Shown here piece after piece: positions 1,730 through 16,885 of a DNA stretch of 64,000 nt (position 1 is its first letter; every line of letters starts with the position of its first letter). This stretch comes from a virus: the IMG/VR virus record IMGVR_UViG_3300032287_001394. The stretch is one strand, 5' to 3'. Both the position numbers and the translations under genes were made by a program. The notes under the pieces are model-generated. The model worked only from the letters and a program-made list of their open reading frames with translations. It was not told where the DNA came from and ran no database searches.

Positions 1730-2338
1730 ATGCTCAAATTTAAAGAATACATAACAGAACAAAAAGAAGGCTACCTAAGCATATTTGACATAGATGACAC
1801 CTTATTCCATACGACTGCCCAAATCATAATCCGTAAGTCTGGTAAGGTTTTAAAGAAGCTGTCTTCAGCTGACTTTAACCATTATAAATTAGATCCTGGA
1901 GAGTCTGCAGACTTCTCAGAGTTTGAGGATGCAGAGAAGTTCAATAAAGAATCAACACCTATCACAAAGATGTTTAATAAGGCTAAGGCACTCCTTGCTG
2001 ATACCCACAAGCATCCAAACAATAAAGTCATCATAGTCACAGCAAGACCTGACTCAGATGATAAGAACAAATTCCTAGCCACCTTCCGTAAGTACGGCTT
2101 CCCAATCGATAATGTAAGGGTAGAAAGGGCTGGCAAGATATCAGCACTATCTGCTCCGCAATCAAAAGCAATCATCATCCACAACTATCTACAAACCAAA
2201 CAATTTAATAAAGTAAGGCTGTTCGATGATAGTATAAATAACCTAAAGGAGTTTCTCAAGTTAGAGAAACATTTTCCAGATGTTAAGTTTACAGCTTGGC
2301 ATGCACATATAGATGGGTCAGTGAGACAAGTAAAATGA
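1730..2338 (+). CDS. HAD-superfamily phosphatase with capsid-targeting-like N-terminus
   Basis: FDIDDTL motif I, VTAR motif II, FDDS motif IV; N-terminus MLKFKEYITE. Confidence 0.8.
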   Translation: MLKFKEYITEQKEGYLSIFDIDDTLFHTTAQIIIRKSGKVLKKLSSADFNHYKLDPGESADFSEFEDAEKFNKESTPITKMFNKAKALLADTHKHPNNKVIIVTARPDSDDKNKFLATFRKYGFPIDNVRVERAGKISALSAPQSKAIIIHNYLQTKQFNKVRLFDDSINNLKEFLKLEKHFPDVKFTAWHAHIDGSVRQVK

Positions 2339-3522
2339 TAGAATTTAAGCAATTCATAACAGAAGCCAAAGATGATGGCAAAGTAAAGCATATCCACCAT
2401 CCAGAGGATAGACCATTAATCGATGGTAAGAAGGGTTTTGAACATGCTATGGGTGTCTTACATCAAGCTTCTGAACATGTAGCTAAAGGTAAGAACGATT
2501 CAAGCATGACGATGAAGTACGACGGCTCTCCAGCTATTGTATTCGGTCATGACCCAAAGACAAAGAAGTTCTTTGTAGCTTCTAAGTCTGCATTCAATAA
2601 GAACCCAAAGATCAACTATACTCCTGAAGACATCGAACGAAACCATGGCCATGCGCCAGGTCTTGTAGAGAAGCTTAAGGATGCATTAGCACACTTACCT
2701 AAGATAGCACCTAAAGAAGGTGTATTCCAAGGCGACCTAATGTTTAGTGGTAAAGATGTAAGGCATAACCCAAACGGATCAGCATCATTCACACCTAATA
2801 CCATCACATACTCTGCACATGGTACAGAAGCACATGCGGTCAAGAAAGCTAAACTTGGCGTGGTAGTCCATACTCAATATAATGGTAGAAACCTGGCAGA
2901 CATGAAAGCTTCACCACAATTAACACATAAGTTTAAGACACATACTGATGTATGGAATAAACCTGCAACACATAATTCTAGTATAACAAACTATTCACCA
3001 GCTGACCAACTTAAGTTTAAAAAACATATGGAAGCTGCACAAAAGATCCATACAGAAGGTGGTAAACAGATGTATACTGCTACTGAACAGCATCATGGCG
3101 AAGGTGGTCATCTAGCTACTTACATCAATCAAACTGTTCGTAACGTAGCAAAGCCTACGGCCCAAGGATTACAACAACACATCATGGATAAGTCTCAGAT
3201 CGTTCAATCAAGACTTAAGACTGCAGCAAAAGCACAAGAGAAACAACAGTCAGCACAAGCAGAAGTCAACTATATCCAAAAGAACCGAGAACACTATGAC
3301 AACCTATTAAAGATGCATCAACACCTTGCTGCAGCAAAGAACGTATTAGTCAGTACACTTAACCAACATCCTGGTACCCTTAGTCATCATATCGATGGTA
3401 AAGAGACACATCCAGAAGGTTACGTGGTGACACATAAGAATGAACCTACAAAGTTAGTAAACAGAGCAGAGTTCAGCAGAGCAAACCTAATGAAAGTGAG
3501 GAAACCAAATGTTAACGTTTAA
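2335..3522 (+). CDS. Conserved T4-like protein with ligase-like nucleotidyltransferase motifs
   Basis: Start re-set to ATG 2335 (ATGA overlap); KYDG, FQGDL, EGYVV and KLV motifs in order; N-terminus MIEFKQFITE. Confidence 0.6.
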   Translation: MIEFKQFITEAKDDGKVKHIHHPEDRPLIDGKKGFEHAMGVLHQASEHVAKGKNDSSMTMKYDGSPAIVFGHDPKTKKFFVASKSAFNKNPKINYTPEDIERNHGHAPGLVEKLKDALAHLPKIAPKEGVFQGDLMFSGKDVRHNPNGSASFTPNTITYSAHGTEAHAVKKAKLGVVVHTQYNGRNLADMKASPQLTHKFKTHTDVWNKPATHNSSITNYSPADQLKFKKHMEAAQKIHTEGGKQMYTATEQHHGEGGHLATYINQTVRNVAKPTAQGLQQHIMDKSQIVQSRLKTAAKAQEKQQSAQAEVNYIQKNREHYDNLLKMHQHLAAAKNVLVSTLNQHPGTLSHHIDGKETHPEGYVVTHKNEPTKLVNRAEFSRANLMKVRKPNVNV

Positions 3523-3784
3523 AGAATACTTAGAAGAAGACAAATATAAATCAGAGACTGGTGGATTGACTCGTGCTGGTGTAGATAAGTATAATAGAGA
3601 AAATCCAGGAAGTAACTTGAAGATGGCTGTGACGACTCCTCCATCAAAGTTAGACCCTAAAGGTAAAGCCGCAGGAAGACGTAAATCGTTCTGTGCTCGT
3701 ATGGGCGGAGTTAAAGGTCCTATGAAAGACGAAAACGGTAAACCAACAAGGAAAGCATTAGCATTAAGGAAATGGAATTGTTAA
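3509..3784 (+). CDS. Small basic conserved phage protein
   Basis: RRKSFCARM...ALRKWNC motif; N-terminus MLTFKEYLEE. Confidence 0.7.
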   Translation: MLTFKEYLEEDKYKSETGGLTRAGVDKYNRENPGSNLKMAVTTPPSKLDPKGKAAGRRKSFCARMGGVKGPMKDENGKPTRKALALRKWNC

Positions 3785-4386
3785 ACTTTAAAGACTTCAT
3801 TACAGAGGACAAAGACCCACAACACCACCACGTGTTGGCTTTTGGTCGTATGAACCCTCCAACTTCTGGCCATATGGCAGTAATTAACAAAGTTCATGAT
3901 GTGGCTAAGAAGCAAGGCGCAGAACACACTGTCGTGACTTCACACAGCCATGATCCTAAGAAAAACCCATTGTCTCCTCAACAAAAGAAGAAACACCTTA
4001 AACGATTTGCACCAGGTACAAACTTTGAGTCATCATCTGCAGAACATCCAACTATCCTACATCACGCAGCAGAACTACATAAGAAAGGTGTCACACACCT
4101 ACATGTAGTAGTAGGATCAGATCGTAAGAAAGAGATGACATCCTTATTAAATAGGTATAATAATAAGAAGTCTAGTCATGGTCACTATAACTTTAAGAAG
4201 ATAACTGTACACTCTGCAGGTCAAAGAGATCCTGATTCAGAGGGTGCAAGTGGAGTATCAGGTACTAAACAAAGAGAGCATGCCCGTACTGGTAACTATG
4301 CGGCGTTCCGCAAGGGCGTACCAGAACATGTATCGCATGCACACGCTAAAGAATTGATGCACGACGTACAACATGGAAGCAAATAG
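3772..4386 (+). CDS. Cytidylyltransferase-like (HxGH-class) nucleotidyltransferase
   Basis: FGRMNPPTSGH, VVGSDR, SAGQRDPD, SGTK motifs. Confidence 0.8.
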   Translation: MELLNFKDFITEDKDPQHHHVLAFGRMNPPTSGHMAVINKVHDVAKKQGAEHTVVTSHSHDPKKNPLSPQQKKKHLKRFAPGTNFESSSAEHPTILHHAAELHKKGVTHLHVVVGSDRKKEMTSLLNRYNNKKSSHGHYNFKKITVHSAGQRDPDSEGASGVSGTKQREHARTGNYAAFRKGVPEHVSHAHAKELMHDVQHGSK

Positions 4387-9083: not shown

Positions 9084-9320
9084 ATGTCAGTATTAAACGA
9101 ACTAAGAGCAGCAATGACAGAGCCAGGTATCAAAGGTGCATTGGCCCAACAGTTACATGATATCACAGAACAATACAATGATGGCATCCTAAATGGTGAT
9201 GAGTTCAAAGACTTGGTTACCCAGATAGGTGACGTACAAGCTAACGATGATCTTGCAGGAGATGAGATAACTTCAAGATGGGTCGCAAATATTACGAAAG
9301 TGATACTCTCCGCTGTATAA
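9084..9320 (+). CDS. Hypothetical protein
   Basis: 78-aa ORF packed between neighbours. Confidence 0.7.
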   Translation: MSVLNELRAAMTEPGIKGALAQQLHDITEQYNDGILNGDEFKDLVTQIGDVQANDDLAGDEITSRWVANITKVILSAV

Positions 9321-9323
9321 ATA
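9316..9323 (+). promoter_or_regulatory. Late promoter
   Basis: TATAAATA upstream of ATG 9358. Confidence 0.75.
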
Positions 9324-9357: not shown

Positions 9358-10935
9358 ATGAAGAACTATAGACAACTCATAAAGGGTTTGCCTTCCAAGA
9401 CCGTCATCATGACAGTCGGAAGCTTTAACCCTCCTACCTCGGTCAACGAGATGGCATTCAAACTAGTAGATAAGCTAGTTGAATCCCATAATGCTGACCA
9501 CATAATCTACGTTACAGAAGACAAGGACAACTTACCTATTGATCGTAAGCTGCACTTCCTTGAGCTCATGTTTGGTGCTATGAACTTTAAGCCATTGAAC
9601 GAGTCAAACCTAACTTCTGAACTAATCAGATTAAAGAGTAAGTATAAAGATGTTATCGTAGTATCTTCAGAAGATAAAGCCAAGCTATATGAGTCATTAC
9701 AAGTGGTTACTACAAGCAACGACTTAGACCATTCTAAGATCAAGTCATATGTAACAAAAGGCGACTTTGCCTCATTTAAGAAACAGATGCCTTCTACACT
9801 AAGAGAGCTGGATGCTCGTAGGCTAATGAACGAGATGAGACAAGTTACTGGCCTCGAGTTACTCAAAGAAGAAGTCAAGTTCACAGTCGATGCACTCAGA
9901 GAGAAGTATTTTAAAGGTCAGATCTACCACATAGGTGATATCGTTGAGTCTGCTGGACAACAGTACGAGATCATGGATCGTGGTTCAAACTACCTTGTGG
10001 TAGTTAATAATACTGGTGACCTATCACGCAAATGGATAAAAGACGTAAAGTTAGTAGAAGCATGCTGGTCTGGATATAAACAAGTTGGCACTAAGAAAAA
10101 AGGCAGCAGAACGGTCCCTAACTGTGTACCAGAATCTGTATTAAACCCTGCAGATCCACATAAAGACTATGCTGAGAAGAGCAAGACTCTACAAGACTTG
10201 TCACGTAACAAAGACGTAGATCAAAAATCTGTACAACAAAGACGCTTAGATCTAGACAAAGAATACGGTAAACTTAAAGAAGAAGTATTTAGCTATAAAG
10301 GCTATGTACCTAAGAACCTTAACAGTGAGTTAGTAGAAGCATTCAAGCTTGTCGCTGTAGACTCTAAAGATCCTGTAGCAATGCTTAATGCTATCAAAAC
10401 AACTGATACATACTTACAACTACATGGTAAGATTGGTGACAATCCAGATATCAATCAGCTTAAGACATATAAAGATGCTCACATTAAAGCTACTGAAGCC
10501 TTACAAAAGATTGGTGTATACAATGCTGAAGAAGAGAAGCCAGATACTAAGTTAGCAAGAAACGTATTAACATATCAAGACTTCATGAAAGCTGGCAAAG
10601 AACCTGTGCCTGAAAATACAGAGAAATATGTAGGTGAACCTCATACGACTCCAGGTCATACACTTGCTACACGTCAACATCTACGTAGACAAAAGGTTGC
10701 ATATGTAAATGAAGCTGCATCAGTTACAGATGGAGAAGTAGAAGGACAAGTGGTTACTAAGATTAAACCGTTACCACCTGAACTAACTCCACCGCCTGAT
10801 GAACCAGGTAAACAAAGAGGTAAAGGCAATAGTGCTTTCTTTGAGAAGAAGAATAAGAAAGTAGAGAAAGAAGCTCTAGACTACCTTGACTTAGATTCAT
10901 GGTTAAGACAACAATCACAACAGGCACACGGATAA
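9358..10935 (+). CDS. Degenerate cytidylyltransferase-like domain plus appended small modules
   Basis: GSFNPPTSVN (HxGH motif lost); LREKYFKGQIY segment; ACWSGY...VPNCVPE module. Confidence 0.65.
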   Translation: MKNYRQLIKGLPSKTVIMTVGSFNPPTSVNEMAFKLVDKLVESHNADHIIYVTEDKDNLPIDRKLHFLELMFGAMNFKPLNESNLTSELIRLKSKYKDVIVVSSEDKAKLYESLQVVTTSNDLDHSKIKSYVTKGDFASFKKQMPSTLRELDARRLMNEMRQVTGLELLKEEVKFTVDALREKYFKGQIYHIGDIVESAGQQYEIMDRGSNYLVVVNNTGDLSRKWIKDVKLVEACWSGYKQVGTKKKGSRTVPNCVPESVLNPADPHKDYAEKSKTLQDLSRNKDVDQKSVQQRRLDLDKEYGKLKEEVFSYKGYVPKNLNSELVEAFKLVAVDSKDPVAMLNAIKTTDTYLQLHGKIGDNPDINQLKTYKDAHIKATEALQKIGVYNAEEEKPDTKLARNVLTYQDFMKAGKEPVPENTEKYVGEPHTTPGHTLATRQHLRRQKVAYVNEAASVTDGEVEGQVVTKIKPLPPELTPPPDEPGKQRGKGNSAFFEKKNKKVEKEALDYLDLDSWLRQQSQQAHG

Positions 10936-10937
10936 AT

Positions 10938-11387
10938 ATGGATAAATTAATAGCATCTCTTAAAGTAGCATTAGGTAATACATTTACGATGTATTTCAAA
11001 GCACACTCATATCATTGGAATGTGGAAGGCCTACATTTTTCTATGTTTCATGACTTCTTCGGCGAAATCTATGAAGACGTATATGGTGCAGTAGATCCTC
11101 TTTCAGAAGAACTACGTAAGCTTGATGCATACGCGCCTATTAGTTTGATGGAGATCTATGGTTATAAGACTATCATGGAAGATAGTTCAAAACCAGATAC
11201 AGCTATAGAGATGGTAATGAACTTATTAACAGCTAATACAGAAGTATTAAATTGTCTATCACCATTATTTGATGAAGCGACAACACAAAAACAACAAGGT
11301 CTTGCAAACTTTATTGCAGATCGTATGGATAGACATAAATTTTTCGAATGGCAACTACAAGCAACACTTAAGAACCTCGGAGCGTAA
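10938..11387 (+). CDS. dps: Dps / ferritin-like protein
   Basis: HSYHWNVEG..F...H..F.E.Y ferroxidase signature; start re-set to ATG 10938. Confidence 0.9.
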   Translation: MDKLIASLKVALGNTFTMYFKAHSYHWNVEGLHFSMFHDFFGEIYEDVYGAVDPLSEELRKLDAYAPISLMEIYGYKTIMEDSSKPDTAIEMVMNLLTANTEVLNCLSPLFDEATTQKQQGLANFIADRMDRHKFFEWQLQATLKNLGA

Positions 11388-11389
11388 GA

Positions 11390-14101
11390 ATGAAATCATA
11401 CAAAGACATGGTAAACGAAGTATTAACTAAGATGACTCCATTAGAGACATGGATCGACGACTTCGTACACTCTAAGAATGCTAAGTTTGCTGGTAAGTCT
11501 ACAGCAGAACGTATATCTATGGCTAAGGGTGCATACTATGCTAAACAAAGACGTGAATCAGTAGAAGAAGCTGCAGCAGTATCGCAAAATAGTACAGCTA
11601 TCACTGACATGAACGAAGATCATTTAGTACACGTTAATGACGGTTCTAAATACGATGAACAACCACATGAAAAAGATGTGGAACATGTCAAATCGCACAT
11701 AGCACTTTTTGGTGGTAAGTTTGATAGTCATTCAGACAAAGGCGCATTCTTTAAATTTCCTGACAAAGATAAAGCTGAACGATTTGTCAATCATGCTAAT
11801 AAATGCCCACACAAGACATGCTCTGCAGAACATGTTACAGAAGCTGTAGAGTATAAAGGTATCGGTACAGACGTGGTTGACAAGAAAAAGAAACTAAACC
11901 CACAACCAAATTTTACAACTGATAAAAAACAAGTTAAAGACTTTAAAGAAGAAGTTAAAAAATCTACTGGCGATCTTAAGAAAGCATGCTGGAAAGGTTA
12001 CACTGCAGTTGGTCTTAAGATGAAAGATGGTAGAAAAGTGCCTAACTGTGTGCCTGAAGAAGTACAAGTACAAGTAGAAGCTAAAGTATATGATCCATTT
12101 ACAAAGAAGATGGTTCCTACTAAACCAATCAAAGTTCAAGCTGGTGGCGGCGCAACTAAGAACGGAGTTCCTGTTGAGACAGGTCCATCTAAGTATAAGA
12201 GTAAATTGCCTATGAGCAAAGCTGCAGGGGTATTAGCTGCAGAAGAAGTAGAACTAATCGCTAAGCATGAAGTTAAAGCTAATGCACCTCATAAATCAGG
12301 TGGTCATGTCATCTTAACTAAGTCATCTAATAAATGGCATGTATTACACAATAAGAAGAGCTCACCTGAAGCTAAAGATCTACATCGTTCAAAACTATTA
12401 CACTCATACGCTGATGAAAAAGAAGCAAGAGCTAAGTTTAAAGAATTACATGAAGAACAGATCGATGAGTTATCTAAAGGATTAGTTGCTAGATACGCAA
12501 ATAAAGTAGCAAAAACTACACAAGCTAATTATGATAAATCTAAAGATAAATTTCAATTCTCGTCAGGTAGACAAGATGGAATGAAAAATGCAGTTAAGAG
12601 ATTAACTAAAGAAGAAGTAGATTTGCACACAGATTTGTGGTCTATTAAAAATACAAAAACTGGTCAAGTATATCATAGTTCTGGTAAATATCCGATCACT
12701 AAAAATAGTCCTACATTCAAAAAAATTAAAGCTGCTGGTGGAGATCATGTACACGCTGCATTGTATAAAAACGGTAAATTAGTTGAAGAAACAGAACAGA
12801 TCGATGAAGTCTCTAAGTCAACATTAATGAGATACATCCCTAAAGCATCGAGAGATGTAGGTTCACACACTTATGCAGGTAAAGAAGCCGGTGAATGGGC
12901 AAGCCATTACACAAGAGCCGGTGACTGGTCTGCAGCAGAGAAACACTCTAAGAAATCTTATGCAGACTTTATGAAAGCAAACAAACGTATTGCTGGTATC
13001 GACACAGCTACTAAGAAGCTTGGTACACAAAAAGAAGAAGTAGAGTTAGATGAAGCTAAATACGGTATTGACGTTCATCGCAACAAGTTATCTAAACTAT
13101 TAACTCACGCTGGTAATGCTGGTATTAAAGCTAAAGTTGTTTCTCATAATCCAAATTGGGAAAAACAAAACGCTGGTGGCGAACATACAGTTTCTTTACA
13201 CGGTAAAGATGAACATATTCGTAAATTTATTCAAAAACATCATGACAGTGATCCACAGGGAACTGATGATTATAAAGAATATGGCAAATCACTTAAAGAA
13301 TCAGAACATATAGATGAAGCTATCGCTAAGAAGTTACCAGTACAACATGCAGTTGATGCAGTACATGCTACATTAGGTCCTAAATCAGCTACACGCTTCT
13401 TATCACACTTAAGCCCAGGTTCTGATAAGCATACTACATGGGATAAAGTAAACGATGCATTAGTGAAACAAGGTGTACAGACACATCACATTGCTTCTAT
13501 TGCACAAAAGACATCTCATATGAACGAAGAAGTTGTTGACGAATCAAGAGGTCATAAAGTATTAGCTACATTCTTTAAGAACCGAGAAGTTGCACAAAGA
13601 TCTTATCAAGGTAATCCTGCTAAGGATGCTGAAGTAGCTCAAGGTGGTGGTAGTCCAGCAGATCAAGGTATCGCTGCAGCTAAGAGAGACGCAGAAGAAC
13701 TTAAAAAAAAAGTAAGTGAGGCAAAGGCACCTGCAGTACACGCGGCTGAGCCTAAGAAGACAAAGTCTACGCCTAAGGAATATGCTAGCGCTACTATACC
13801 AGGTACAAAACGTGTAGCACATGCAAAGCCTGATGATAACGAAGTAGGTGGTGGTACTGCTACAAGGATTGCTGAAGATCAATATACGTCAGAGTATAAG
13901 ATCAAGTCTTATGTAGATCCGGTTACTGGTGAGAATAAGACTAGAAAGATTAGACCTCATCGTATTAATTTTAAATCATCTAAGATGAATGCTGCACCAG
14001 CACAAATGACAGAGCCAACAAAAGTTACAGAAGATGATAAAGTATACGATGAAAAATGGAAAAAAGTTAAATTTACAGATTTTATAAAGGGAGCTAAGTA
14101 A
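11390..14101 (+). CDS. Modular K/H/E-rich putative internal-head (poly)protein
   Basis: 903 aa; N-terminus MKSYKDMVNE; repeated EEQIDE/EEVELDE linkers. Confidence 0.6.
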   Translation: MKSYKDMVNEVLTKMTPLETWIDDFVHSKNAKFAGKSTAERISMAKGAYYAKQRRESVEEAAAVSQNSTAITDMNEDHLVHVNDGSKYDEQPHEKDVEHVKSHIALFGGKFDSHSDKGAFFKFPDKDKAERFVNHANKCPHKTCSAEHVTEAVEYKGIGTDVVDKKKKLNPQPNFTTDKKQVKDFKEEVKKSTGDLKKACWKGYTAVGLKMKDGRKVPNCVPEEVQVQVEAKVYDPFTKKMVPTKPIKVQAGGGATKNGVPVETGPSKYKSKLPMSKAAGVLAAEEVELIAKHEVKANAPHKSGGHVILTKSSNKWHVLHNKKSSPEAKDLHRSKLLHSYADEKEARAKFKELHEEQIDELSKGLVARYANKVAKTTQANYDKSKDKFQFSSGRQDGMKNAVKRLTKEEVDLHTDLWSIKNTKTGQVYHSSGKYPITKNSPTFKKIKAAGGDHVHAALYKNGKLVEETEQIDEVSKSTLMRYIPKASRDVGSHTYAGKEAGEWASHYTRAGDWSAAEKHSKKSYADFMKANKRIAGIDTATKKLGTQKEEVELDEAKYGIDVHRNKLSKLLTHAGNAGIKAKVVSHNPNWEKQNAGGEHTVSLHGKDEHIRKFIQKHHDSDPQGTDDYKEYGKSLKESEHIDEAIAKKLPVQHAVDAVHATLGPKSATRFLSHLSPGSDKHTTWDKVNDALVKQGVQTHHIASIAQKTSHMNEEVVDESRGHKVLATFFKNREVAQRSYQGNPAKDAEVAQGGGSPADQGIAAAKRDAEELKKKVSEAKAPAVHAAEPKKTKSTPKEYASATIPGTKRVAHAKPDDNEVGGGTATRIAEDQYTSEYKIKSYVDPVTGENKTRKIRPHRINFKSSKMNAAPAQMTEPTKVTEDDKVYDEKWKKVKFTDFIKGAK

Positions 14102-15882
14102 TGTTAAAGTTTAATGACTACTTAAAAGAGGCTGCATTGTCAGCTAAACAAAAGAAGATCGCAGCGGTCGCTGGCGACAAGGACAAGATTGATGCTGCAG
14201 ACTTAGCTGCTTTAAGAAACGGTAAGAAACCAGTTGAAGAAGCTAGTTGCTCTGGCAATATGAAGAAGGAAGAGCTCGTTGGCAATCAACATAAGCTTGA
14301 CAAGAATAAGAACGGCAAGTTAGATGCTCATGATTTTAAGTTACTTCGTAAAGAAGATAAAGATACCCATAGCCTGGATCATGAAATGGAAAAACATGGG
14401 GATACTTTTGGTCATCATCATGACTCATATGATCATGATAATAGTGATGTTGATAGATATTATGTTAAAAAACAAAAACAACATGTAAATGCTGCAGAAG
14501 AAGCTCTTAAAAAGGGTGATAAAAAAACTATGCATGCACATTTAACACATTTTTACCACCTTGCAGGAGAAGCACATGATTATGCAGGTAGAGATGAAGA
14601 ATCAGCTGAAGCTAGTGATTTAAAACATCATCATAAAAAATTAGCTGGTAAAGTCCATGTTAATGAAGAAGTAGAGTTAGACGAAGGTCGTGTTAAAGAA
14701 CTTGCAATGGATCTTAAAGATATGAGTCATGACGAGTTCCATAAACAATATGGTAAACCTAAGTCTCATTTCGATCCTACTAACTTTAAAAAACCAGTAG
14801 AACCTGGTAAAGGTATGGATCGTGCAAGAGCTTTAGCTCAACGCGGTATGCAATCATTATCTAAAGAAGAAGTAGAACGCATTGAAGAGAAGTTAACACA
14901 AATCGATGAGTTATCTAAGAAGACTTTAGGTTCATATGCTAAGAAAGCAACTAAAGATCTTAAATCACAAAAGACTAATTATGATTACCTACACTCAGAT
15001 GATGATGCAGAACATGAAGATGATGGTTCAGAAACTATGAAAGGCTTTGATGCTAGACGCATCCGTAATAAAGAAAAGGGTATCGATAGAGCTGTTAGTA
15101 AATTAGCTAAAGAAGAGACAGAACAAATCGATGAGTTATCAAAGAAGACTTTAGGTTCATATGTAAATAAAGCAGCTAAAGATTCACGTATCCATGGCCA
15201 AATAGCCACTGATTTTGAAAACACTGCTGATAAAGCTAGAAAGCAATCAAAGAAAGATTCTTTTGAAAGATTAAACAGAAAATATTTAGAAAAATCATGG
15301 AAGCGTGAAGATGGTATTGCTAAAGCTGTAGGTAAATTAACTAAAGAAGAAGTAGAGTTAGAAGAAGCTACTACTCGTAAAGACTTCCAAATGGTTGCTG
15401 ATCTTATCAAAGGTCATGAGTCTGCTGATAAACGTAAAGAGTTAGCTACACATCATGCTGGTATATTTGCTAAACAAAACCCTCGCTTCGATCATGCTAA
15501 GTTCATGAAAGCAGCTGGAGTTAATGAAGAAGTACAACAAGAAGTGTCACCATATCTTAAAGCAACACTTAAAGTTATGGATGAAGGTAAGATCGATAAC
15601 CTTAGAGATGCACAGAAGTTAAGACAAGATACACAATCTGCTTACGATAAGAACTACAAACCAGACACAAGTCATCCGCATATCCAAGTAGTTAAAGGTA
15701 ACGCGTATGGTGGTGCGAACCAAAAAGATGATGAAGGTGATGAGAAGCCTGATGAAACAAAAGAGAAAAAAGGTCGTGGCAGACCTACTGGATCTAAATC
15801 AGGTGCTAGACAAAAAGGTGGTGGACATGAAGACGGCGGTATTCCTGTGCATAACTTAAACTTGCCAAAATCATATAAATAG
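14101..15882 (+). CDS. Modular putative internal-head (poly)protein
   Basis: 593 aa; N-terminus MLKFNDYLKE; QIDELSKKTLGSY twice; EEVELDE/EEVELEE linkers. Confidence 0.6.
   Translation: MLKFNDYLKEAALSAKQKKIAAVAGDKDKIDAADLAALRNGKKPVEEASCSGNMKKEELVGNQHKLDKNKNGKLDAHDFKLLRKEDKDTHSLDHEMEKHGDTFGHHHDSYDHDNSDVDRYYVKKQKQHVNAAEEALKKGDKKTMHAHLTHFYHLAGEAHDYAGRDEESAEASDLKHHHKKLAGKVHVNEEVELDEGRVKELAMDLKDMSHDEFHKQYGKPKSHFDPTNFKKPVEPGKGMDRARALAQRGMQSLSKEEVERIEEKLTQIDELSKKTLGSYAKKATKDLKSQKTNYDYLHSDDDAEHEDDGSETMKGFDARRIRNKEKGIDRAVSKLAKEETEQIDELSKKTLGSYVNKAAKDSRIHGQIATDFENTADKARKQSKKDSFERLNRKYLEKSWKREDGIAKAVGKLTKEEVELEEATTRKDFQMVADLIKGHESADKRKELATHHAGIFAKQNPRFDHAKFMKAAGVNEEVQQEVSPYLKATLKVMDEGKIDNLRDAQKLRQDTQSAYDKNYKPDTSHPHIQVVKGNAYGGANQKDDEGDEKPDETKEKKGRGRPTGSKSGARQKGGGHEDGGIPVHNLNLPKSYK
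15874..15881 (+). promoter_or_regulatory. Late promoter
   Basis: TATAAATA, then AAGGAG RBS and ATG 15905. Confidence 0.8.
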
Positions 15883-15904: not shown

Positions 15905-16885
15905 ATGGCTTTATGGGGAAAAACAGATACTTTAGCTTCGGCTCCAAAGTATGTAGCAAGAAAGGCGGTATTCGATGCGCAAGCTAAAGTTAGCTCAGCG
16001 AACGATACTATCGACCTAACAGATGCAAATACAAACTTTTCAACTGGTGACGGTGTTGTTTACACTGGTGCTAGTGGTATTGGTTTAACACAAGGTACAG
16101 CATACTATGCGATGAGACAAACAGATAACACTATCAAGCTTGCTACTACAGAAGCTGGTGCTAAAGCTGGTGCTACAGGTATTAACCTAACAGCTGGCGC
16201 TACTGGTGCTATCGGTTACCTACAACGTAATGCTGAAGGTAATGAAGCAACTGGAGCATCAGGTGCTACTGGCTCTTCACTACAATTCTCACCTGCAGGT
16301 GATCATGTATACAATGGTCGTGACTTATACTTCATCGATGCTGATGAAGCACAACAAGCTGAAAACATTGCACGTGGTCTTAACACACCAGGTTGGACAA
16401 ACTATCGTTCATATACTGATGCTAATGGCAACGTTAGAAATAAATCAGAAGTATTAATTGCTATGGGTGCATATACTGGCGCTACTGGTTCTGGTACATT
16501 CCAAGCTCAAACTGGTGATGCTTCAGATGACACAGTATTAGTTGATGGTACAATCACTATCGGTACACAACCTGCAAGTCAATCTAAAGTTGCTGGTTCT
16601 GGCGCTGGTAACAAGGGTGTATTCACTGTTGTTGCTACATTAGCTGGTGCTGGTTCATTGACATATCAATGGCAAGTTCAAGAGTCATCAGAATCTGGTG
16701 CAACATGGACTAACGTATCACGTGGTTCTGGCGGTACAACAGCTACTTACACAACAGGTAATACAGCTGTAACAGCGTCACCAACTGGTGATACTAATGG
16801 AGACAAATATCGTGTTATCGTTTCTTCAACTGGTTCTACAAGCGTAACATCATCAACAGCAGTATTAACAGTAACAGCAAGCTAA
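15905..16885 (+). CDS. Virion structural/decoration protein with C-terminal Ig-like domain
   Basis: MALWG start, TPGW motif, QPASQS...LTYQWQ...YRVIVS...AVLTV Ig-like pattern. Confidence 0.7.
   Translation: MALWGKTDTLASAPKYVARKAVFDAQAKVSSANDTIDLTDANTNFSTGDGVVYTGASGIGLTQGTAYYAMRQTDNTIKLATTEAGAKAGATGINLTAGATGAIGYLQRNAEGNEATGASGATGSSLQFSPAGDHVYNGRDLYFIDADEAQQAENIARGLNTPGWTNYRSYTDANGNVRNKSEVLIAMGAYTGATGSGTFQAQTGDASDDTVLVDGTITIGTQPASQSKVAGSGAGNKGVFTVVATLAGAGSLTYQWQVQESSESGATWTNVSRGSGGTTATYTTGNTAVTASPTGDTNGDKYRVIVSSTGSTSVTSSTAVLTVTAS

Follow-up and report, generated by a model that had tools for sequence, protein, structure and literature searches.

The 64,000-nucleotide stretch of viral DNA analysed here (IMG/VR record IMGVR_UViG_3300032287_001394; hereafter the window) is part of the genome of a freshwater T4-like myovirus, with genes for a gp5-type hub-lysozyme, a gp6-type wedge protein, a gp48-type tube cap, a primase, a ribonucleotide reductase and a collagen-like fibre, and its nearest cultured phage shows merely ~33% identity to it on a tail protein. 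A tightly packed block at 9358-15882 encodes, in order, the protein p525, a Dps-like protein and the two modular proteins of 903 and 593 residues (p903 and p593) that are the subject of this study. Both open reading frames (ORFs) were found as claimed in a preliminary description made from the sequence alone, and so was their richness in Lys and His (K 14.7% and H 5.0% in p903; K 15.0% and H 5.6% in p593). The host encounters internal head proteins before any other phage protein, and those of T4 disarm restriction systems. To our knowledge, such proteins are almost unknown outside the T-even coliphages.

The preliminary description had regarded p903 and p593 as strings of small basic modules bounded by acidic linkers, and every linker that it quoted was located in the two proteins (Table 1). 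The module start IDE-[LV]SK..L..Y..K likewise recurs four times, at residues 358 and 471 of p903 and 268 and 343 of p593. The description of the modules as basic holds for many of them but not for four segments that are neutral or acidic, such as p593 48-195 with an isoelectric point of 6.2. The motif EE[VT] occurs seven times in p903 and five times in p593, against 0.7 and 0.4 in composition-preserving shuffles (an excess of about 10-fold), and [LI][DE]E four and five times against 0.7 and 1.0. A further weak EEV-type site is present at residue 284 of p903.

Table 1. Features of the modular-protein locus and of related ORFs and motifs in the window.
Feature	Position	Strand	Remarks
Leader ORF 1730	from 1730	+	Kinase/phosphatase-like; one of four other leader-bearing ORFs, all within 1730..4386, upstream of p903/p593
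Leader ORF 2335	from 2335	+	Ligase-fold family member (phrog_455)
Leader ORF 3509	from 3509	+	91 aa
Leader ORF 3772/3778	3772/3778 to 4386	+	Cytidyltransferase
T4 late-promoter-like TATAAATA	9316..9323	+	35 nt upstream of block 9358-15882
TATAAATA near gene starts	250, 9316, 15874, 21421, 34208, 47907, 54364, 62183	+
TATAAATA near gene start	53902	-
p525	9358..10935	+	Modules of the same family joined to an N-terminal domain of nucleotidyltransferase-like type
Dps/ferritin-like gene	10899..11387	+	No leader; Pfam Ferritin E 2.8e-17; phrog_3636
p903	11390..14101	+	First modular protein
CTS-like leader of p903	11390..11419	+	Aromatic (Y) at 4, Met 7, Val 8, Glu 10; compared with T4 IPII/IPIII
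KEEV joint (weak)	11945..11959	+	p903 186-190; breakpoint in relatives
CWxGY..PNCVPE mini-module	11987..12058	+	p903; predicted beta-hairpin; paralogue in p525
EEV-type joint (weaker)	12056..12079	+	p903 223-230
Linker ending QIDE	12443..12469	+	p903 352-360
KEEV joint (weaker)	12608..12625	+	p903 407-412; swap point in 99%-identical variant P0029
Linker EETEQIDE	12785..12808	+	p903 466-473
Linker EEVELDE	13034..13054	+	p903 549-555
Linker ESEHIDE	13298..13318	+	p903 637-643
Linker EEVVDE	13526..13543	+	p903 713-718
p593	14101..15882	+	Second modular protein; start overlaps p903 stop (TAATG)
CTS-like leader of p593	14101..14130	+	F4, Y7
EF-hand/dockerin-like calcium-loop motif	14299..14337	+	p593; below Pfam thresholds
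Linker EEVELDE	14665..14685	+	p593 189-195
Double linker	14866..14910	+	p593 256-263 and 264-270
Linker EETEQIDE	15112..15135	+	p593 338-345
Linker EEVELEE	15346..15366	+	p593 416-422
EEV-type joint (weaker)	15526..15549	+	p593 476-483
AT-hook-like motif GRGRP..GSK	15772..15810	+	p593 558-570; conserved C-terminal module, kept in alignment consensus
Head-protein-like gene after operon	15905-16885		phrog_613; N-terminus MALWG..; Thr/Ser/Gly-rich C-terminal half

The family to which p903 and p593 belong amounts to 292 word-index matches and 2,620 representatives at 50% identity, most of them from contigs of 150-170 kb, and is carried by uncultured freshwater and marine T4-like phages. A comparison of module boundaries in homologues with the linkers had been proposed in the preliminary description, and the two were found to coincide. 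Breakpoints of homology blocks fall at linkers in 60% of cases for p593 (19% expected) and in 30% for p903 (14% expected), and in pairwise alignments the insertions and deletions of 58-183 residues span linker to linker: one QIDE-to-QIDE module is missing from P0121, the module between residues 555 and 643 from P0006, and 113 residues from both P0015 and P0017. At locus L002, which belongs to a ~95% identical relative, the flanking genes retain 92-98% DNA identity and both modular genes are mosaic, with 10 of 14 mosaic block ends lying within 2 residues of a linker (13% expected). The homologue P0029 is 99% identical to p903 as far as the KEE at residue 412 and unrelated to it beyond. Lake and freshwater metagenome contigs from four studies carry the joins 11953>12076, 13046/13056>13305/13311 and 14352>14665 and end loosely at 12454, 12615, 13042, 13305 and 15353; contig breaks may mark strain divergence, and these data describe mosaic populations, not a mechanism. 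The interval 14390-14689 has no contig cover in this comparison and was given no weight.

Synteny of the neighbouring genes is kept while the lengths of the modular genes vary (810-1093 aa and 330-860 aa, or 1264 aa when fused). The autonomy of the modules is evident from these linker-to-linker deletions and replacements and from a stand-alone viral cluster of 57-aa proteins that corresponds to p593 424-478, exactly one module, with a template modelling (TM) score of 0.89; many other short homologues that seem to stand alone resemble truncated gene calls or fragments. Single-linkage clustering of the linker-cut segments placed all of them in one cluster and yielded no module census. Gain, loss and replacement of modules at linkers are seen among the homologues, at L002, in P0029 and in the lake contigs, and we regard cassette exchange at the linkers as very probable.

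Both proteins begin with a leader resembling the capsid-targeting sequence (CTS) of T4. In the T4 CTS, residues 4 and 7 serve targeting and loading and residues 8 and 10 serve processing, Asp at position 10 blocking the cut (PMC9026906); T4 Alt is cut at ITE-6 and LTE-619 (PMC5694885). The N-termini of T4 IPII and IPIII read MKTYQEFIAE (NC_000866), with Y4 and F7 as the targeting residues. Positions 4 and 7 are matched in p903 and p593, as a likeness of sequence only, and a processing motif of the type [IL(V)]-x-Glu is present at the end of each leader (V-N-E in p903 and L-K-E in p593). The leaders of homologues terminate at residue 13 with Q-I-[ND]-E|V or at residue 10 with Y-L-K-E|A. Among 80 leader-bearing homologues, 40 have the end of the first [LIVM]-x-[E/D] site at residue 13 and 22 at residue 10, with Glu nearly always at P1, the last residue of the site. 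When the window was scanned in six frames, the leader pattern coincided with the predicted start in six ORFs, which all lie between 1.7 and 15.9 kb; there was one stray match, and no other ORF has the pattern. The upstream enzymes among these six may also be head cargo, judging from their leaders.

In ~40 homologues the counterparts of p903 and p593 are fused, and the second leader, its Met included, has become internal. An internal restart giving the second protein separately may occur in such forms. The codons preceding the internal leader (KKES/KEGV) form Shine-Dalgarno-like purine runs in P0005, P0023, P0026 and others and at locus L009 (8540-12334).

If the likeness to the T4 tag were a coincidence of AT-rich start regions, p903 and p593 could be cytoplasmic proteins that bind DNA or remodel the nucleoid, as their Lys-rich composition, the AT-hook-like motif of p593 and the occurrence of related modules without a leader in cyanophages would allow. 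This explanation is highly improbable, as the leader is common to six unrelated ORFs of one locus and to no other in 64 kb and is retained even when internal, and as a late-promoter-like motif precedes the operon and a head-protein gene follows it. Targeting of p903 and p593 to the phage head is, by contrast, likely on the evidence of their leaders.

The linkers were examined in 259 family proteins, at least one being present in 240 and at least three in 136. They conform to the consensus ..KLTK-EE-V-E-(Q)-[IL]-[DE]-E, after which come L/I/A and S. Among 412 eight-residue linkers, the terminal position P1 is Glu in 390 and never Asp, P2 is Asp in 312 and Glu in 66, and P3 is occupied by I, L or V; the P4-P1 residues Q-I-D-E are the same as the end of the homologues' N-terminal leaders. 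A fixed Glu at P1 next to a variable P2 fits a protease specific for Glu, and a mere acidic spacer would not need such asymmetry.

At the DNA level the linkers are repeats with 71-96% identity over 28 nt. The QIDE linkers at 12454-12477, 12793-12816, 14895-14918 and 15120-15143 share the core CA(G/A)ATCGATGA(G/A). Across loci, the Ile codon of QIDE linkers is ATC in 17 of 19 cases, compared with 30% for Ile before Asp elsewhere. The codons CAG, ATC and GAG are over-used in linkers. Codon-pair context accounts for much of this excess, in which the sites are not independent, and for Gln and Glu in QIDE linkers that context explains codon choice only partly.

These repeats bear on a second explanation, in which p903 and p593 are targeted to the capsid and lose the leader alone, the linkers being uncut acidic spacers conserved for in-frame recombination within large multi-domain internal proteins. 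The exchange at linkers, which is directly shown, and the repetition of their DNA agree with it, as do structure models that place several linkers within long helices. Recombination, however, requires identity of DNA and not an invariant P1 Glu beside a freely varying acidic P2; the linker replicates the processing end of the leader; and since linker codon choice is in part ordinary codon-pair context, selection at the DNA level is not clearly shown. We consider uncut spacers unlikely.

A protease of the expected kind is encoded by two near-complete relatives of 160 and 168 kb, in which a gp21-type Peptidase_S77 was identified (E 7e-40 and 2e-35), its gene in both cases adjoining gp22, gp23 and a gp68-like gene. 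The cleavage site of the relatives' major capsid proteins could not be mapped by alignment onto T4 gp23, whose own site is part of an insertion that does not align; the sites L-N-E and L-F-E seen in the relatives are guesses.

All the computationally testable predictions of the polyprotein interpretation came out in its favour, and the explanation that we prefer, as moderately probable, is that p903 and p593 are late, capsid-targeted cargo polyproteins of the phage head. By sequence likeness to T4, the leader of 10-13 residues would dock p903 and p593 on the prohead core, as the CTS does for IPI-III and Alt, and a gp21-type prohead protease would remove it after [ILV]-x-Glu. The same protease would also cut after the terminal Glu of each acidic linker, a step towards which we lean on balance. 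Cutting would free modules of ~55-185 residues, comparable in size to mature T4 internal proteins; with strong sites only, the predicted pieces would measure ~350, 113, 82, 88, 75 and 185 residues for p903 and ~185, 68, 7, 75, 77 and 171 for p593. Once freed, each module would retain an acidic tail and remain with the DNA, which some, such as the AT-hook-like C-terminal module, may bind. The linkers, with ~20-28 nt of near-identical DNA, act as joints for the in-frame deletion, duplication and exchange of modules between phages, as shown here, and because exchange occurs at linkers the cargo set would differ even among near-identical strains.

Cutting at many sites is also compatible with a role as dispensable components of the prohead core or scaffold, akin to T4 gp22, gp67 and gp68, in which case the modules would be filler and the chopped pieces would exit the head. 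T4 core proteins are indeed cut to short fragments that leave the capsid (PMC5694885), and much of p593 is predicted to form long charged helices of a scaffold-like kind. The head cluster of the relatives, however, already has a scaffold like gp22 and a core protein like gp68, several modules are both conserved and compact, enzymes are encoded by the leader-bearing ORFs nearby, and the extreme turnover of modules among near-identical strains suits host-facing cargo better. A core or scaffold role is accordingly improbable.

Several observations weigh against head-packed cargo polyproteins cut at their linkers. No gp21-type protease gene was found within the window, which stops short of the head cluster. 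The bare triplet [LIV]-x-E is not clearly above shuffles (16 against 10.2±2.8 and 10 against 7.5±2.4). In AlphaFold models of low confidence, one linker of p903 and three of the four in p593 fall within long uninterrupted helices and not in loops. Strict conservation of the linkers could be due in part to a role in recombination. Lastly, the cyanophage proteins that have single modules in common with the family carry no leader, so that modules need not be head-bound.

The cargo proteins proposed here resemble T4 IPI, IPII, IPIII and Alt in their short leader with an aromatic residue at 4, a hydrophobic residue at 7-8 and a Glu where the cut is made, and in being mostly basic, encoded at a hypervariable locus of a T4-type phage and possibly late-expressed. 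They differ in that a T4 internal protein is a single module with one cut (Alt being cut at both ends), whereas members of the present family have up to 11 linkers per protein and would give many products; there is, moreover, no sequence similarity outside the leader, and the two genes can fuse with the leader internal. Glu-ended sites, many per polypeptide, are shared with T4 gp22, gp67 and gp68 and with giant-phage propeptides (SPN3US gp53 and gp54 and the inner-body proteins of phiKZ), the prohead protease cutting T4 core and giant-phage head proteins after Glu at multiple sites per chain (PMC5694885, PMC10052503). The pieces of those proteins are waste cleared from the head, whereas those of p903 and p593 would be conserved, swappable modules of internal-protein size, and the giant-phage motifs are A/S/G-x-E in contrast to the I/L-x-E of the linkers. 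A single ORF, a cognate protease and conserved inter-domain sites also recall the polyproteins of eukaryotic RNA viruses, which belong to an unrelated lineage and differ in protease and site of action (here the prohead interior); in the present family, unlike those viruses, the module set is shuffled between strains.

In the modular shuffling cassettes of T4-type phages (hyperplastic regions), short conserved DNA repeats flank exchangeable units, as they do at the linkers of p903 and p593. The repeats of p903 and p593 differ in lying inside the reading frame and encoding a peptide motif, and protein modules rather than genes are exchanged. A search of the available literature revealed no account of a phage head polyprotein, nor of a CTS in cyanophages or elsewhere beyond coliphage-type T4 relatives, and p903 and p593 probably extend what is known of T4 internal proteins and multi-site prohead proteolysis.

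If the interpretation as head-packed cargo is correct, one gene supplies many injected head proteins, which populations swap as cassettes, and leader plus linker would constitute a sequence signature for injected cargo in metagenomes. The modules would also provide small candidates for anti-defence or DNA-binding functions, and their arrangement would offer a design from nature for packing several payloads into T4-type capsids. A more tentative and rather doubtful extension is that the linker is dual-purpose, its peptide serving as a prohead protease site and its DNA as an in-frame recombination joint, so that populations could reshuffle head-packed, injected proteins with anti-defence or DNA-handling roles in one or two genes. 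This would amount to a natural combinatorial cassette system for injected effectors, beside enzymes bearing the same capsid tag.

The AlphaFold model of p593 consists mostly of long helices, with a predicted local distance difference test score (pLDDT) of 67.6 and a predicted TM score (pTM) of 0.32. The p903 model (pLDDT 56.8, pTM 0.27) has confident islands at residues 20-55, 95-145, 200-222, 300-360 and 475-545, and the low-confidence stretches between them contain most of the p903 linkers. In a Foldseek search of the PDB neither model had a match at E <= 0.001, and ESM Atlas feature matches were all below 0.9. One stretch of ~70-80 residues in p903 has a weak ferredoxin-like resemblance, a lead only. 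Pfam searches with whole p903 and p593 and with eight segments returned nothing save subthreshold EF-hand and dockerin matches, PHROGs gave families of unknown function only, and the whole proteins, compared with cultured phages by megablast and tblastn, had no match or a single one, of 97 residues, to S-SKS1.

The preliminary description had suggested effectors or DNA-binding peptides as the products, and of this the analysis found an AT-hook-like motif and an EF-hand-like loop, with nothing else pointing to a function. The former was read by eye, as an R-G-R-P core with basic flanks, and not with a hidden Markov model. The calcium-loop motif of p593 is below the Pfam gathering score (EF-hand_1 E 0.01, 15.8 bits against 25.4; Dockerin_1 E 0.003), and the homologue P0064 lies barely under the EF-hand_1 cut-off (25.3 against 25.4 bits). 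The CWxGY..PNCVPE mini-module was detected in 207 phage records, mainly of cyanophages, whose proteins with this module are devoid of the leader. In the cultured Synechococcus phage S-CREM1 (locus L030, 297-3814), a NadR-like nucleotidyltransferase gene directly precedes that of a 784-aa Lys-rich modular protein with CWxGY..PNCVP, the same pairing of nucleotidyltransferase and modular protein as in the window.

Expression of p903 and p593 may be late, judging from the late-promoter-like TATAAATA upstream of their block. Twelve of the 13 matches to TATAAATA in the window are on the coding strand, most just upstream of gene starts, and the total is not above chance (13 against 9.8). Inside the block 9358-15882 no sigma-70-like or terminator signal stands out. 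The first protein of the block, p525, carries CWxGY..PNCVPE at 10063-10134 and two KEEV joints, and is a paralogue of the cytidyltransferase at 3772-4386, with the nucleotide-binding motif NPPTSVNE against NPPTSGH in that paralogue. Its leader is decayed, with Gly at position 10 where relatives have Glu, and p525 may represent an enzyme domain in decay, loaded yet unprocessed. The phrog_613 gene that follows the operon is conserved in all relatives, and its product may be a head decoration protein. The Dps/ferritin-like gene is kept at the same place in the relatives L002, L006, L009 and L010.

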